A stretch of 6,432 bases of DNA from a virus (Duplodnaviria; Heunggongvirae; Uroviricota; Caudoviricetes): IMG/VR virus record IMGVR_UViG_2526164634_000019; one strand, 5' to 3'. A model generated the notes under the pieces. It was not told the DNA's origin. It worked only from the letters and a program-made list of their open reading frames with translations, and ran no database searches. This document shows, in pieces, positions 1,788 to 6,432 of the stretch (the stretch's first letter is position 1; the number at the start of each line of letters is the position of its first letter). The position numbers were made by a program, and so were the translations under genes.

Positions 1788-2747
1788 ATGAAAATTTGTA
1801 TCGACGACGGCTCCACCAACATCAAGCTGGCATGGACTGAGAACGGCGAACGCCGCAACGCCATCAGCCCGAACAGCTTCAAGTCGGAATGGTCTGCGCC
1901 GTTCGGTGGCACGCAGCCCGCGAACTACATGCTTGATGGCGTGCGCTATGGTTTTGATCCGGTCAGCGATCGCTTTGTCCAGACGACCGACACGCAATAC
2001 CAGTACAGCGATGTGAATGTCATTGCCATTCATCACGCGCTGGTCAAATCAGGCATCACACCACAGGAGGTGGATGTGGTTGTCACCCTGCCACTGAGCG
2101 AGTATTTCGACACAAACGCACAGCCGGACATGGCCAACATCAACCGCAAAAAAGCGAACGTTATGCGCCCGGTGGAATACCAGAACGGCGAAGCATTCAC
2201 TATCCGTAATGTACGGGTTATGCCTGAATCCATTCCGGCTGGCTTTAAAGCACTGGCTGACATGAGTCCGTTTGAATCCCTGCTGATTGTGGATTTAGGT
2301 GGAACCACGCTGGATGTGGCAAAGGTTCAGGGACAACTGGCAGGTATCAGCCAGGTGTTTTGCGATCCACACGTAGGCGTTTCCCTGATGGCCGATGCAG
2401 TACTGTCGGTGATGGCCACTAACGGTATGCGTACCAGTCACCACATCGCCAATACCATTATCGAACATCGCCATGATGAAGCCTGGCTGCGCCAGCACAT
2501 CCACAATGACGCGCATTACGCCAGCCTGATGGCGGTTATTCGTGAAAAGGAAGAAACACTGAAACAACGCGTGATCCGCGCGCTGGCGGGTTTTTCGGGT
2601 TACGGGCGGGTGATGCTTGTCGGTGGAGGGGCGGAGATTGTGGCACCCGCTATCCGCGAAGTCTGCGGAGTTAATGCGACTTTCATCGCGGACGGGGTGC
2701 CACAGTTTGCTCTGGTTAATGGGCTGTACGCAATGGACAAGGAGTAA
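1788..2747 (+). CDS. stbA: actin-like ATPase of type II plasmid partition systems (StbA/ParM family)
   Basis: 319-aa ORF with SD AAGGA 8 nt upstream of the ATG. N-terminus MKICIDDGSTNIKLAW and motifs VMPESIPAG, LIVDLGGTTLD, VMLVGGGAE, LVNG match the actin-fold phosphate/adenosine motifs and my recollection of R100 StbA (MLVFIDDGSTNIKLQW...). Not verified by database search. Confidence 0.85.
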   Translation: MKICIDDGSTNIKLAWTENGERRNAISPNSFKSEWSAPFGGTQPANYMLDGVRYGFDPVSDRFVQTTDTQYQYSDVNVIAIHHALVKSGITPQEVDVVVTLPLSEYFDTNAQPDMANINRKKANVMRPVEYQNGEAFTIRNVRVMPESIPAGFKALADMSPFESLLIVDLGGTTLDVAKVQGQLAGISQVFCDPHVGVSLMADAVLSVMATNGMRTSHHIANTIIEHRHDEAWLRQHIHNDAHYASLMAVIREKEETLKQRVIRALAGFSGYGRVMLVGGGAEIVAPAIREVCGVNATFIADGVPQFALVNGLYAMDKE

Positions 2748-2751
2748 ACCA

Positions 2752-3066
2752 ATGACGACACCAACCAGACGGATAAGTTTCTATCTGAAGCCCGCCGCCG
2801 TCAAGAGTGAACAGGAGGCGTGCAATTACCTCGATAGCCTGCCAGCCTCCGAACGCAGCCGCGCGCAACGCGCGGCCTTTCTGGCTGGGCTAGCGCTCAT
2901 AAAGCGCAACCCAGCATTTACCTACTGGATGGCCGAATGGCCAGAGGACAACCTCCCCTTCAATACCGTTAGCATCAAGGAAACATACCAGGATAATCAG
3001 CCTAGCGGAGTTGAATGCAATTTTTATAAAATAAAAAAGAATATTCAGACCTTATTCCCAGAATAA
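2752..3066 (+). CDS. stbB: StbB/ParR-like partition adaptor (likely ribbon-helix-helix DNA-binding protein), 104 aa
   Basis: ATG at 2752 preceded by SD AAGGAG (2739-2744), 4 bp after the stbA stop, so translationally coupled. The track ORF 2617..3066 uses an unlikely TTG start inside stbA. Sequence MTTPTRRISFYLKPAAV...SLPASERSRAQRAAFLAGLALIK resembles StbB/ParR N-terminal regions as I recall them. The last 25 or so codons lie in AT-rich DNA. Confidence 0.75.
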   Translation: MTTPTRRISFYLKPAAVKSEQEACNYLDSLPASERSRAQRAAFLAGLALIKRNPAFTYWMAEWPEDNLPFNTVSIKETYQDNQPSGVECNFYKIKKNIQTLFPE

Positions 3067-3114
3067 TCTGATAATTGTATGTGAACTAATAAAATACAGA
3101 CCAACACATCATTC

Positions 3115-3139
3115 TGGCACCCTTGCTAACAGGGTGCCA
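3115..3139. terminator. hairpin between convergent genes (9-bp stem TGGCACCCT/AGGGTGCCA, 7-nt loop), probable bidirectional terminator
   Basis: Perfect inverted repeat read directly, followed on the plus strand by TGTTTC. Located 49 bp after the stbB stop and 10 bp after the stop of the minus-strand gene ending at 3150. Confidence 0.5.
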
Positions 3140-3149
3140 ATGTTTCAAA

Positions 3150-3992
3150 TCATGATGAAATTGCCGAAGTTTTTTTATCGTGCTGAAGTACCGCAAATGC
3201 CATTAAAACCTCAAGAGAATAGCGGCGATAATACTTAACAAAACCATAATAAAATACTCGGGATGCAGCAATACAAAACAAGAGAAGAAAACAAAAAGGT
3301 AACAGTCTGATATTTATATCTATTAAAAAGGATAGAAGGAGCAGGAACATAAGCAACCAGACTGAAGCGAGAAAAACAAATGTAATGTTTCTACAAAAAC
3401 CATACAAAGCAACATAGTTTTGCATTTTCACCTGATGATTTTTAGAATGTTCATACACATAATGATAAGCAAGGCGAAAAAGATCGCCCCTCAAGCCCTT
3501 ACGTCGATATAGCGTAGATACAGAAAAAACATTTATATAACCATCTCGTATTTGCGGCCAAAAGACTTTAATAAGTATAGAATGCAGTGTGGTTTTATGA
3601 TGTTCTGCTTTATCAAAAGCTGATACAGGAAATAAAAAAACTCCACGAATAAAATTAACTATACTGAACTTAGTATTATGTCGTTTTATTTTCAGGGAGC
3701 TTCTTTTAGAAAACAGATAAATTGAAGGATACCCAAGTTTACTGTTCATGTATTTTTCAATTAAACAGGATGATAGAATAGATATGAAGTGACCTGAAAT
3801 ATATGATAGAACGATTAATACCACATATATAAATACACTTATTATTTCTTTATATTTCAGGATATGGTTAAGAATACCTTCTATATAAACAGGGTTAATT
3901 TCAATAGAAAACAAAAAAAGGATAAACAGGAATAACCCACCTGGAATTAGATAGCCCAAAAAGTCATAAAATGAAAACGGATTCTGTGTCAC
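3150..3992 (-). CDS. hypothetical polytopic membrane protein (280 aa; about 4 predicted TM helices flanking a roughly 125-aa basic central domain)
   Basis: Long minus-strand ORF in AT-rich DNA with a GTG start at 3992 preceded by SD-like AGGGGGAA. Strongly hydrophobic segments at roughly aa 9-29, 49-73, 205-227 and 233-255. Starts 39 bp downstream of the preceding gene stop, so it looks operonic. No recognisable catalytic motif by eye. Confidence 0.7.
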   Translation of the reverse strand: MTQNPFSFYDFLGYLIPGGLFLFILFLFSIEINPVYIEGILNHILKYKEIISVFIYVVLIVLSYISGHFISILSSCLIEKYMNSKLGYPSIYLFSKRSSLKIKRHNTKFSIVNFIRGVFLFPVSAFDKAEHHKTTLHSILIKVFWPQIRDGYINVFSVSTLYRRKGLRGDLFRLAYHYVYEHSKNHQVKMQNYVALYGFCRNITFVFLASVWLLMFLLLLSFLIDINIRLLPFCFLLLFCIAASRVFYYGFVKYYRRYSLEVLMAFAVLQHDKKTSAISS

Positions 3993-4031
3993 ACTTCCCC
4001 CTGTGTTACTTGTAAATTAAAGGGTAAAACA

Positions 4032-4529
4032 TTATTTGTTTTTCCGTAAAGGATTAGCTTTCCATCTTCTTACTAACCATTCGAATTCTTGATATGTAGT
4101 ATCCGAATTAATGCTTTCTCTGATTGCTTTAATTAATGGCTCGGCAATATCATATGTCTCTACAACTGTTGTGTAAGATGTTCTTTTTATCATTTTTTCA
4201 TCATAAATACCTTCACGAATACTTACAGCAACTCGCTCGTAAAAATTTAAAATATATTGAAATTTTCGACGCTCGGCCATTTCTTCATCTGTTATTATGC
4301 AACCATCACAAGGAAAAACATAAGAACGAAATGATTTGCCTGAACGATGCACTTGTTTCAGGGTATGCAATGACTCTATATATTGCATATCTTGCCGACT
4401 CTCAAAAAGAAAGTTGGCCGTTTGAGTTTTTTTTGCGGTACGCACATTGTAGATAATGGTTCCAATGGCAACCAAAACGCCAAGCAGAACAATAGCATTG
4501 CTGATGATTTGTAGTGTTATTGGGTTCAT
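4032..4529 (-). CDS. hypothetical single-pass membrane protein (165 aa; N-terminal TM helix plus about 135-aa soluble domain)
   Basis: ATG at 4529. N-terminal ITLQIISNAIVLLGVLVAIGTIIY is a clear TM/signal-anchor segment, followed by a charged soluble domain. AT-rich and co-oriented with the downstream polytopic membrane protein gene. Confidence 0.7.
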   Translation of the reverse strand: MNPITLQIISNAIVLLGVLVAIGTIIYNVRTAKKTQTANFLFESRQDMQYIESLHTLKQVHRSGKSFRSYVFPCDGCIITDEEMAERRKFQYILNFYERVAVSIREGIYDEKMIKRTSYTTVVETYDIAEPLIKAIRESINSDTTYQEFEWLVRRWKANPLRKNK

Positions 4530-4549
4530 CCTATTTCATCCATAAAAAA

Positions 4550-4570
4550 GGCGGGGAGCAAATCCCCGCC
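4550..4570 (-). terminator. intrinsic-terminator-like hairpin (8-bp GC-rich stem GGCGGGGA/TCCCCGCC, 5-nt loop) followed on the minus strand by T6
   Basis: Read directly. On the minus strand the hairpin is followed by TTTTTT (plus 4544-4549) and lies only about 14 nt upstream of the ATG at 4529, which leaves no room for a promoter between terminator and gene. Confidence 0.55.
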
Positions 4571-4590
4571 TCATTAGAGGTCAACGTAGC

Positions 4591-4626
4591 TTAGAAACCA
4601 TCAAATTCATCATACATTTTTTTCAT
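4591..4626 (-). other. candidate 11-codon leader ORF (MKKMYDEFDGF) with strong SD, upstream of the terminator hairpin
   Basis: Minus-strand ATG at 4626-4624 preceded by GAGGGGG with a 5-nt spacer; stop TAA at 4593-4591, 20 nt before the hairpin. The arrangement promoter, leader ORF, terminator, structural genes resembles an attenuator. Could be coincidental. Confidence 0.25.
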
Positions 4627-4678
4627 ATCAACCCCCTCATAGAAATCATAACCACGTTTTGTGGTTTTTGTGACGTAT

Positions 4679-4707
4679 AAACTACATCAAAGGCAAGCCA
4701 CGGTCAA
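4679..4707 (-). promoter_or_regulatory. candidate sigma70 promoter for the leader and membrane-protein operon (-35 TTGACC, 17-bp spacer, -10 TAGTTT)
   Basis: Minus-strand TTGACC (plus 4707-4702) and TAGTTT (plus 4684-4679) with a 17-bp spacer; the -10 keeps the conserved T1, A2, T6. Predicted from sequence only. Confidence 0.35.
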
Positions 4708-4726
4708 ATATATAGGCATGCTTACC

Positions 4727-4756
4727 TGCACAAAAGTGCACAAATTTGCACAATTT
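4727..4756. repeat. three tandem 10-bp direct repeats TGCACAA(A)nn at the right edge of the AT-rich island
   Basis: TGCACAAAAG / TGCACAAATT / TGCACAATTT in helical phase, read directly. The middle copy contains the palindrome GTGCAC. Confidence 0.5.
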
Positions 4757-5127
4757 TTTTGAACGACTTTTTACCCTTCCGGCCCGCATGGCGGCTGGAT
4801 CCGTCAAGGATCCGTGCGTGCACAAAAAAACGCGCTTTTTCTGCGCGCAGGTGACGGGGGAACAGCCCGCGTTTCAGGGGGTAAATAGCATTCCCTGAAC
4901 GATGTCGCAGAGATAGAACAGAATGGCTGTATTTCTCACGCTGAGCGTGAAAAAGACGTGAGGGCTTTTGATTTGATGGGGTGAAAGGTAAGGCCGTCAA
5001 AATCGCACTGAGACGGCGAGAACATGCAGTCAACGCGGTGGGATTGCGTAAGAGTCTGACTGTCGATGATGGCAATCAGCAGGAAAGCGTCGTGAAATTA
5101 TCTGACTGATACAGGAGCTGGAGAGTC

Positions 5128-5177: not shown

Positions 5178-5747
5178 TCAGGATGTGGGCTGGGTGTCTA
5201 ACAGTGCGTAAGGGTTAAAGCGGATCACCTCTTCGCCAAGCCAGTCATTGATGTGCTTCATGGCCTCCATGACGGGCATCAGCTCGTTAATTGCGTAAAC
5301 CCGCGCGGCCTTCTCCACATCACCAAACGCACTTTTTTCGCCCGGCATCGCCCCCATCAGTTGCGGCGGAACGCGGTGCGCAGCCAGCACATCATCACGG
5401 GATGCCGCCTTAACATTCATGAACTCATCCTTTGCGGTGATCTGCTGGAACGGCAAAATTTGCACCCCTTCTTTGCCCCCGTTGGGCGCATGAATGAGCA
5501 CGTTTTTAAATGCACCACCACCACGCGCACCCTGTAACGTTTCTTTCAGGGAGTCCATGCTTTCGCGGTTTACCTGCGCTGCACCGATGTAGATGATGCA
5601 CCCGGCGTGGGATCCGTTGTCGTAGTACAGTTTTCTGAACATGTCCGCCGAATGAGAAAGGCTGGCCGAGAGTAATGCGCCAAGATATTCCGGCATGCCG
5701 TAGATTTCCTGGTTAATATCCGGATTCATCAGGTGGCACACTTTGCC
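5178..5747 (-). CDS. phage portal protein (P2 gpQ-like), C-terminal part only; 5' portion separated by IS10 insertion
   Basis: Minus-strand ORF ending at the stop at 5180-5178. Translation ...HRVPPQLMGAMPGEKSAFGDVEKAARVYAINEL...WLGEEVIRFNPYALLDT resembles the C-terminus of P2-family portal proteins (from memory). The frame runs straight into the IS10 terminal repeat at 5748 and hits a stop inside IS10 at 5760-5762, so the gene is interrupted. Confidence 0.7.
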   Translation of the reverse strand, partial: GKVCHLMNPDINQEIYGMPEYLGALLSASLSHSADMFRKLYYDNGSHAGCIIYIGAAQVNRESMDSLKETLQGARGGGAFKNVLIHAPNGGKEGVQILPFQQITAKDEFMNVKAASRDDVLAAHRVPPQLMGAMPGEKSAFGDVEKAARVYAINELMPVMEAMKHINDWLGEEVIRFNPYALLDTQPTS

Positions 5748-5770
5748 CTGATGAATCCCCTAATGATTTT
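5748..5770. repeat. IS10 outside-end terminal inverted repeat
   Basis: Exact match to the 23-bp IS10 outside end as remembered. Confidence 0.85.
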
Positions 5771-5793
5771 TATCAAAATCATTAAGTTAAGGT

Positions 5794-5862
5794 AGATACA
5801 CATCTTGTCATATGATCAAATGGTTTCGCCAAAAATCAATAATCAGACAACAAAATGTGCGA
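5794..5862 (-). ncRNA. IS10 RNA-OUT antisense RNA (predicted position)
   Basis: Placed from established IS10 biology: pOUT starts near element position 115 and RNA-OUT runs about 69 nt outward, overlapping the transposase start (RNA-IN). The Dam site GATC at 5814-5817 lies in the pIN region. Not verified independently. Confidence 0.4.
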
Positions 5863-6432
5863 ACTCGATATTTTACACGACTCTCTTTACCAATTCTGCC
5901 CCGAATTACACTTAAAACGACTCAACAGCTTAACGTTGGCTTGCCACGCCTTACTTGACTGTAAAACTCTCACTCTTACCGAACTTGGCCGTAACCTGCC
6001 AACCAAAGCGAGAACAAAACATAACATCAAACGAATCGACCGATTGTTAGGTAATCGTCACCTCCACAAAGAGCGACTCGCTGTATACCGTTGGCATGCT
6101 AGCTTTATCTGTTCGGGCAATACGATGCCCATTGTACTTGTTGACTGGTCTGATATCCGTGAGCAAAAACGGCTTATGGTATTGCGAGCTTCAGTCGCAC
6201 TACACGGTCGTTCTGTTACTCTTTATGAGAAAGCGTTCCCGCTTTCAGAGCAATGTTCAAAGAAAGCTCATGACCAATTTCTAGCCGACCTTGCGAGCAT
6301 TCTACCGAGTAACACCACACCGCTCATTGTCAGTGATGCTGGCTTTAAAGTGCCATGGTATAAATCCGTTGAGAAGCTGGGTTGGTACTGGTTAAGTCGA
6401 GTAAGAGGAAAAGTACAATATGCAGACCTAGG
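5855..6432 (+). CDS. IS10 transposase, N-terminal 192 codons; 3' end beyond window
   Basis: ATG at 5855; frame open to the window end. Translation MCELDILHDSLYQFCPELHLKRLNSLTLACHALLDCKTLTLTELGRNLPTKARTKHNIKRIDRLLGNRHLHKERLAVYRWHASF... matches IS10 transposase. Absent from the ORF track because no stop falls in the window. Confidence 0.9.
   Translation, partial: MCELDILHDSLYQFCPELHLKRLNSLTLACHALLDCKTLTLTELGRNLPTKARTKHNIKRIDRLLGNRHLHKERLAVYRWHASFICSGNTMPIVLVDWSDIREQKRLMVLRASVALHGRSVTLYEKAFPLSEQCSKKAHDQFLADLASILPSNTTPLIVSDAGFKVPWYKSVEKLGWYWLSRVRGKVQYADL

Follow-up and report, generated by a model that had tools for sequence, protein, structure and literature searches.

P22 SieA and SieB, HK97 gp15, lambda RexB and T4 Imm are membrane proteins of superinfection exclusion or abortive infection. 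The trpL and pheL attenuators and the arrest peptides TnaC, ErmCL and Cat place a downstream gene under the control of a leader peptide, and Csx27, the type VI-B1 accessory protein, reportedly belongs to a superfamily with four transmembrane helices, relatives of which have been proposed as single-stranded DNA channels tied to competence. In P2-like phages, the interval between gpA and gpQ has been defined as a cargo hotspot, and the system of phage AC1 in this hotspot consists of a protein with two transmembrane helices, a protein with one and a TIR component (2TM + 1TM + TIR), with small membrane proteins (Rousset et al. 2022, PMC9122126). We analyzed a window of 6,432 nucleotides (the whole of the stretch studied, IMG/VR record IMGVR_UViG_2526164634_000019, Caudoviricetes) from a defective P2-like prophage, which carries in the same hotspot two co-oriented minus-strand genes encoding a 165-amino-acid (aa) protein of the DUF4760 family and a 280-aa protein. 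Our preferred reading, which we consider probable, is that window 3067–4726 consists of two independent accessory cassettes lying head to tail in the gpA–cos hotspot, the products of which may act separately in conflict. The cassette of the DUF4760 gene includes, ahead of that gene, a very short open reading frame (micro-ORF) that ends in the residues DEFDGF.

Distribution of the two genes

The preliminary description of this locus regarded the two genes as one operon encoding a single membrane system, an idea that their distribution does not bear out. We searched 53 viral DUF4760 loci (31–100% identity) for a 280-aa homologue within 6 kb and found it in eight, all at ≥99% identity; outside one Escherichia coli lineage it was present in 0/45. 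In the other direction, DUF4760 accompanied the 280-aa homologue in 7 of 60 viral loci, all seven from the same element, and outside the same lineage it was found in none of the 53 viral loci carrying a 280-aa homologue. Across 74 genomes of Proteobacteria, Bacteroidota, Firmicutes, Verrucomicrobiota and further phyla, the 280-aa family has no conserved neighbor; the sole neighbors to recur are a PIN_8 protein with a 92-aa protein, in five to six Bacteroidales loci (e.g. L183, L187, L189 and L203).

Each gene is also found by itself. In Xenorhabdus the same hotspot contains a DUF4760 gene (88% identity) on its own, many other P2-like contigs carry DUF4760 alone between cos/portal and opposite-strand genes, and in Serratia it occupies another prophage region. 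Homologues of the 280-aa protein with 44–47% identity lie alone directly upstream of xis/int in lambdoid prophages of E. coli, Salmonella, Enterobacter and Citrobacter, and others lie in nin-type regions adjoining AIPR-like or PIN-like genes, each of these homologues having its own AT-rich upstream region of 100–150 nt.

The sole diverged copy of the pair (L128) differs from the window by a synonymous divergence (dS) of 0.039 for DUF4760 versus 0.276 for the 280-aa gene, from which we infer separate histories of the two genes even there. Both genes are real, with hundreds of homologues each, and ratios of nonsynonymous to synonymous divergence (dN/dS) of 0.07 and 0.28 against L128 indicate purifying selection on both. 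Kinship between the 165-aa and 280-aa proteins was considered and rejected (hhalign probability 0.15%). Judged by co-occurrence across lineages, the two genes very probably do not form an obligate pair. Dealing with two cassettes rather than one system changes the strategy for cloning and testing them.

The leader of the DUF4760 gene

The constant partners of DUF4760 are a micro-ORF and a terminator, both overlooked in the preliminary description. Of 47 loci scanned, 37 have an ORF ending in [DE]EF[DE]GF-stop ahead of DUF4760; close reading of eight among the remaining ten showed variant endings in all eight (DEFEWV, WDENDGF, GGF or EGWDG[FY]), so that a micro-ORF precedes every closely read DUF4760 gene across 31–100% identity. 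Micro-ORF, hairpin and gene order are retained down to 31–40% DUF4760 identity. Among 19 distinct leaders the final six codons differ at their third positions without altering the peptide, the changes being synonymous. All 19 have a GC-rich hairpin when folded one by one, with several unrelated stem sequences, and a T run follows in all except L053. The variant leaders keep the terminator hairpin in four of eight cases, none of them of the EGWDG type.

The leader in the window has the architecture of an attenuator, a short ORF and then an intrinsic terminator upstream of a gene. The T run of the terminator ends about 13 nt before the DUF4760 start, and the ribosome-binding site of DUF4760 is weak compared with the strong Shine-Dalgarno sequence of the micro-ORF. 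In the minimum-energy fold of this leader the Shine-Dalgarno region pairs with a downstream ACCUCU, at a z-score of only −1.8. RNAalifold gave no consensus structure on a MAFFT alignment of 18 leaders because the divergent hairpins are not in register in it, and Rfam holds no family for the leader, the best match (SorX, 19 bits) being a terminator-like similarity only.

Upstream of the micro-ORF, a promoter-like site of the form TTGAC[CT]-N16/17-TA[AG][AT]TT is present at the equivalent place in related cassettes (L011, L023, L026 and L030), and the position of the window palindrome is taken there by one or two palindromes of different sequence (TTCAC-N6-GTGAA). This recurrence of promoter-like site and palindromes suggests a DNA-binding regulator. 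IS421 (IS4 family) has landed in the terminator hairpin (window about 4550–4560) in two viral contigs and at least five complete E. coli genomes, and DUF4760 is thereby separated from its leader. Such insertions are seen in L324 (about 3055), L277 and L298.

The micro-ORF elsewhere in phages

Searching for DEFDGF-stop at the DNA level gives 116 viral stretches, as against three with a reversed-pattern control. At the 114 sites that were read, DUF4760 comes next in 32 and a terminator-like hairpin in 62. The link is therefore asymmetric: in the loci read DUF4760 is always accompanied by the micro-ORF, and the micro-ORF often occurs without DUF4760. Two explanations would fit this asymmetry, a cis-acting leader that is reused or a general micropeptide of phages on which DUF4760 depends.

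Across unrelated phages the micropeptides are 8–21 residues long (MKDEFDGF, MYDEFDGF, MLDEFEGFDEFEWV and MFSLRKFDEEDFEFFDEFDGF are examples), often overlapping the stop of the upstream gene and followed by a hairpin. In T4-like, lambdoid and P2-like contigs (L207–L346) they carry one to three C-terminal copies of D-E-F-[DE]-[GW]-[FV], MLDEFEGFDEFEWV being a tandem-motif form. Eight-codon ORFs of the type M-x-DEFDGF begin at an ATG or GTG overlapping the stop codon of the preceding gene, which is a member of the gp49/gene-66 family or encodes a calcineurin-like phosphoesterase, and further sites lie downstream of the antiterminator Q. T4-like Karamvirus phages have a 21-aa ORF between a-gt.2 and gene 47, annotated as the hypothetical protein YP_009005317.1. 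For the 21-aa forms PHROGs has no family and tblastn returned no matches, probably owing to low-complexity masking. No DEFDGF-type micro-ORF was found near the 280-aa homologues.

At one site the micro-ORF follows a ClpX-zinc-finger-like gene and precedes a 174-aa gene (MKKYEYMLMKEALR...) that belongs to no Pfam or PHROG family. In the P2-like contigs L214, L221, L233, L238 and similar ones, a ParR-like end (...RALFPE-stop) is overlapped by (CTG)NDEFDGF-stop, followed by a hairpin and the 174-aa gene, and the same module comes after a ClpX-zinc-finger-like gene in L228 and L240. Its occurrence after either kind of gene points to a recombination junction inside the micro-ORF. We tried and rejected kinship of DUF4760 with the 174-aa protein that follows the micro-ORF in these other P2-like phages.

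An acidic stretch ending in a C-terminal phenylalanine is reminiscent of the C-terminal tip of the single-stranded DNA-binding protein SSB and of the tails of T7 gp2.5 and gp4, a similarity that may serve as a lead only.

The DUF4760 protein

The 165-aa protein is a full-length member of Pfam DUF4760 (PF15956; 119.3 bits against a cut-off of 25, E 1.8e-34, profile positions 2–141 of 141) and matches phrog_2284, which has no known function. Hydropathy and AlphaFold2 secondary structure give one transmembrane helix (residues 8–26) and a 139-aa C-terminal part, and the protein is probably a single-pass inner-membrane protein whose helical domain faces the cytoplasm. By the positive-inside rule, the large parts of both this and the 280-aa protein would lie in the cytoplasm. 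The basic residues K34, R45, R68, R99, K115 and R137 are invariant in DUF4760.

The AlphaFold2 model of DUF4760 is confident (mean predicted local distance difference test, pLDDT, 92.7), and with it Foldseek ranks EDS1-family chains first, with probabilities up to 0.99 and TM-scores of 0.52–0.58. The matching region is the EP domain of these plant proteins, and the match probably takes in the long transmembrane helix of DUF4760. A profile search of PDB sequences with DUF4760 found no EDS1-family chain, and the predicted resemblance would be one of fold rather than family membership. To our knowledge, the EP domain is considered unique to the plant EDS1 family; if the likeness holds, DUF4760 would be a prokaryotic or phage relative of that domain.

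In the P2-like contig L030 (2779–6814), DUF4760 is followed by genes for a 578-aa ATPase-like and a 477-aa UvrD-like protein, which look Gabija-like by eye from their N-terminal sequences. This locus suggests that DUF4760 is able to share the hotspot with defense-type cargo.

The 280-aa protein

The 280-aa protein has pairs of transmembrane helices at about residues 12–30 and 50–72 and at about 200–250, around a 120-aa loop with 20 lysine and arginine versus 6 aspartate and glutamate residues. It belongs to phrog_12528 (E 1e-71, function unknown) and to no Pfam or NCBIfam family. A profile search at E ≤0.001 collected 1114 cluster representatives of its family. In the predicted topology, the invariant polar and aromatic motifs are on the cytoplasmic side: QNPFSxYDFLGYxIPG at the N-terminus, GH in transmembrane helix 2, EKYMN..YPS after it, H177, E181, H186, K189 and NYVALYGFxR before helix 3, and KFYRRY.LE after helix 4. 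The AlphaFold2 model is poor (pLDDT 57.5) and unfit for a structure search. In profile searches of PDB sequences, no solved structure related to either family came up.

The window protein matches the PADLOC Csx27 model with E 1.1e-5 (23.9 bits, model positions 4–179 of 206). Of 59 diverse family members, 44 match PADLOC Csx27 (PDLC01605), 10 match NCBIfam CAS_Csx27 (NF040557) and 13 match tm_4; no other family recurs. On sequence, the 280-aa protein therefore appears distantly similar to the four-transmembrane Csx27 superfamily. It is not Csx27 itself, since cas13b is missing and the scores stay under the threshold; NF040557 gives no match to the window protein at E up to 1, a PADLOC scan of the window cargo and partition proteins found no Cas effector, and an Rfam scan found no CRISPR family. 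The competence, ubiquitin-like and WYL neighbors reported for the Csx27 family were not seen among the 74 genomic loci. In enterobacterial phage nin regions (L113 and L114), members of the 280-aa family lie beside genes labeled by eye as PIN-like (447 aa) or AIPR-like (566 aa).

Possible function of the two cassettes

Neither protein resembles a known defense system. PADLOC gave only weak Csx27, PprPIWI and PDC-S35 matches among the window cargo and partition proteins, none above noise, and Pfam no Abi/CPBP, KwaA or RexB match in the window proteins. A characterized non-defense function was likewise looked for in Pfam, PHROGs and NCBIfam and was found for neither protein. A search of BFVD yielded no informative viral match, and a holin or lysis role was set aside, the holin-family match found there reaching a probability of 0.51 and a TM-score of only 0.30. 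The impression in the preliminary description that the proteins resemble no defense or conversion family known to it is incomplete in view of the DUF4760 match (E 1.8e-34) and the weak Csx27 matches. A defense or exclusion role for either gene is plausible, at a little under even chances.

Cassette 1 (4726–4032, minus strand) comprises the conserved promoter-like site, the MKKMYDEFDGF ORF, the intrinsic terminator and DUF4760. We propose that most of its transcripts end at the terminator, which would give a surplus of the peptide and leave DUF4760 to read-through. The peptide would then be either a cis-acting gate or a binding partner of DUF4760. Cassette 2 (3992–3150) encodes an inner-membrane protein with four helices and an apparent distant kinship to Csx27. 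In lambdoid prophages and, across many phyla, in variable parts of the genome, its gene stands by itself, and since it lacks its usual upstream region here, it is probably read through from cassette 1. Judging from location and precedent, both products may work on the cytoplasmic side of the inner membrane, in phage–phage or phage–host conflict (exclusion or abortive infection), separately and not as a pair.

Several findings weigh against this interpretation or parts of it. In 289 of 5426 complete E. coli genomes (≥80% coverage) both genes are retained side by side, separated by a conserved 39 bp that contain no terminator, and a second allele (87% identity) has an identical layout of both; given this joint retention, cooperation within that lineage may exist. 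Three distant loci (EGWDG[FY]) lack a terminator, the micro-ORF stop overlapping or abutting the DUF4760 start, and the leader folds show no conserved antiterminator pairing, so that classical attenuation is at most a possibility. The micro-ORF stands without DUF4760 at about 70% of its sites. The Csx27 matches of the 280-aa family are weak (best E 1.3e-8). The EDS1-family matches have Foldseek E-values of only 0.26–0.9 and derive from a predicted model, and the EP domain is without support in sequence, a Pfam scan at E up to 1 giving DUF4760 and one chance match.

Alternatively, the micropeptide and DUF4760 could form a toxin–antitoxin-like or ligand–receptor module, in which the peptide binds the basic helical domain and inhibits or activates it, and infection shifts the peptide level or competes with the peptide, leading to a membrane effect. 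The peptide gene comes first, with a strong Shine-Dalgarno sequence and before the terminator, and DUF4760 follows with a weak ribosome-binding site; antitoxin–toxin operons typically show such an order and stoichiometry. The presence of the micro-ORF in every closely read DUF4760 locus agrees with such a module, as do the stop/start overlap TAATG in distant clades, which suggests translational coupling, and peptide variants that differ by DUF4760 clade (DEFEGF, EEFDGF, DEFEWV and EGWDGF). Tandem hexapeptide copies in other phages would suit a binding motif, and the invariant basic residues of DUF4760 a partner for it. However, at most sites the peptide has no DUF4760 beside it, implying another role or target, and canonical DEFDGF returns in a clade of 39–41% identity, so that the co-variation is not clean. 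We regard this module as unlikely. As a long shot, the true two-part unit may be micro-ORF plus DUF4760, with the micropeptide family (one to three acidic-aromatic hexapeptides, in phages of enterobacteria) as ligand or gate of a membrane-anchored EP-like receptor; if true, phages would have a new peptide-sensing module for conflict or communication, and it could point to where the EP domain originated.

A role outside defense for both genes, as morons of lysogenic conversion or housekeeping (with envelope modification, lysis timing or modulation of DNA uptake as examples), is also rather improbable. Some members of the 280-aa family adjoin glycosyltransferase or polysaccharide genes, and the single-stranded DNA channel and competence proposal for Csx27 relatives (Makarova et al. 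2019, as cited elsewhere) would suit a role in DNA uptake. The hotspot itself also holds partition systems and cytolethal distending toxin (Rousset et al. 2022, PMC9122126). The weak holin-family match in BFVD could be read in the same direction, but its TM-score is low, there is no Gtr, holin, spanin or CPBP match, and the neighbors of the 280-aa gene are mostly mobile-element, restriction-modification, PIN_8 and AIPR-type genes.

That DUF4760 and the 280-aa protein form an obligate two-component membrane system, a sensor with an effector or pore that stops a superinfecting phage by depolarization or a block of DNA entry, is highly improbable: their co-orientation, terminator-free junction and joint retention in the 289 E. 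coli genomes and the 87%-identical allele, in a hotspot rich in defense cargo and with membrane proteins known as defense effectors (Rousset et al. 2022, PMC9122126), are outweighed by the failure of the families to occur together outside one lineage in either direction or to neighbor each other in 74 genomes or about 100 viral loci, by their discordant divergence and by the lack of a match of either protein to a known defense system.

The most worthwhile subject for further study lies outside the gene pair of the preliminary description, namely the DEFDGF micro-ORF, the constant association of DUF4760 with it and the predicted fold resembling the EP domain; the micro-ORF offers a concrete and cheaply testable handle.

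Genomic context

The insert lies between gpA/ParMR and cos/portal of the prophage (Table 1), both membrane-protein genes being downstream of gpA and the ParM and ParR-like genes and upstream of the cos region and portal gene Q. The GC content is 0.27–0.39 across about 3000–4700 versus 0.52–0.63 in the backbone flanks.

Table 1. Positions of genes, signals and other features in the window
Feature	Position (strand)	Details
gpA, P2 replication protein A, C-terminal part	1–1461	
ParM	1788–2747 (+)	Pfam StbA_N 1.8e-82, ParM C-terminal domain 3.7e-68
ParR-like Plasmid_stab_B	2752–3066 (+)	Pfam Plasmid_stab_B 6.8e-28
Hairpin	3115–3139	TGGCACCC-N9-GGGTGCCA, between the convergent 280-aa and ParR-like genes; read from sequence
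280-aa gene	3150–3992 (-)	GTG start, ribosome-binding site GGGGGAAG ahead of it
DUF4760 gene, 165 aa	4032–4529 (-)	ATG start
Intrinsic terminator	4542–4572 (-)	GAGGCGGGGAUUUGCUCCCCGCCUUUUUU; hairpin 4572–4548 and T run; 10 pairs, 7 G-C
Micro-ORF	4591–4626 (-)	MKKMYDEFDGF, 11 codons and stop; Shine-Dalgarno GAGGGGG at 4638–4632
Palindrome	4650–4666 (-)	AACCAC-N5-GTGGTT in the 5' untranslated region; candidate operator or small hairpin
Promoter-like site	4679–4707 (-)	TTGACC (4707–4702), 17-nt spacer, TAGTTT (4684–4679); read from sequence, putative
Portal gene Q fragment	5178–5741 (-)	Portal match ends at 5747
IS10 end truncating portal gene Q	5748–6432	Rfam RNA-OUT at 5793–5862 (-), 97 bits

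The ORFs, the topologies (one transmembrane helix with a 139-aa part, and four helices around a 120-aa basic loop), the AT-rich foreign composition and the placement at the P2 cargo site of tin and old, which is the gpA–gpQ hotspot (Rousset et al. 2022, PMC9122126), all agree with the preliminary description. Its extent of 3150–4640 holds for the genes and falls short at the upper limit, the true cassette limit being at about 4726, so as to include the promoter-like site, the 11-codon ORF and the terminator; the P2 backbone in common with phage PhiR44_2 stops near 4727. Its overall interpretation is thus partly supported, the genes, topology, composition and location standing and the dedicated pair not.

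The partition cassette of ParM and the ParR-like protein (1788–3066) comes after gpA, and about one in four P2-like phages has a cassette of this kind (Rousset et al. 2022, PMC9122126). Having no clear T run on the minus strand, the hairpin at 3115–3139 is a possible terminator for both of the genes converging on it. Compared with the prophage of E. coli sequence type 131 (ST131), about 632 bp are also missing, which span gene WP_000236495 and the last portal codons, indicating that the prophage is defective here and its cargo intact.

Window 3000–4800 is 100% identical to the P2-like phage vB_EcoM-705R2 and to a P88-like ST131 prophage, and the same cargo is present in about 5% of complete E. 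coli genomes, ST131 included. The locus had been recorded before, the exact arrangement being listed about 160 times in Table S5A of Rousset et al. (2022, PMC9122126). The DUF4760 label and these accessions (including WP_000193205) are absent among the systems listed as tested in that study (Table S2), and literature searches on DUF4760, the two WP accessions and the peptide motif returned nothing relevant. The locus is a common, previously catalogued and still uncharacterized cargo, and one of the commonest uncharacterized arrangements in a hotspot known for anti-phage systems. In GenBank ON470623 (L001 7137–7546, corresponding to window about 4136–4545, plus strand), two opposite-strand "hypothetical proteins" are annotated over the DUF4760 gene in place of DUF4760, which looks like a gene-calling error.

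Comparison with known systems

The cargo shares the gpA–gpQ hotspot with old and tin of P2, but its proteins have no similarity to Old or Tin in PADLOC. Unlike the AC1 system in the same hotspot, it has no TIR or other enzyme partner. Kinship of DUF4760 with the 1TM protein of AC1 was considered and rejected (hhalign probability 0.4%).

SieA and SieB, gp15, RexB and Imm resemble the two proteins in being small inner-membrane proteins encoded by AT-rich morons in prophage variable regions, and the position of the 280-aa homologues at the xis/int end of the early-left region adds to the likeness. They differ in having no sequence relation to either of the two window proteins, which carry their conserved motifs on the putative cytoplasmic side. 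With Csx27, the 280-aa protein has in common about four transmembrane helices, and Csx27 models are its sole recurrent matches. In contrast to type VI-B1 loci, there is no cas13b or CRISPR array here and the gene lies in a prophage; the Csx27 model has 206 positions against 280 aa with a 120-aa basic insert, and the scores are low.

The EP domains of plant EDS1, PAD4 and SAG101 have 7–10% identity to DUF4760. In the EDS1 family the EP domain is accompanied by an N-terminal lipase-like domain, which DUF4760 lacks, having a membrane anchor instead. EDS1-family proteins form a heterodimer that binds TIR-made nucleotides, whereas DUF4760 has a transmembrane helix and a helical domain only, and a TIR gene is absent from the window.

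The DUF4760 leaders differ from attenuators in lacking a run of single-amino-acid codons and a conserved antiterminator, in a stop-to-hairpin spacing that varies from 2 to 37 nt, in having some terminator-less versions and in that the same ORF closes operons elsewhere. They resemble the leaders of trpL, pheL, TnaC, ErmCL and Cat in their order, a short ORF with a strong Shine-Dalgarno sequence, then a terminator, then the gene, and with the arrest peptides they share the conservation of the peptide sequence itself.

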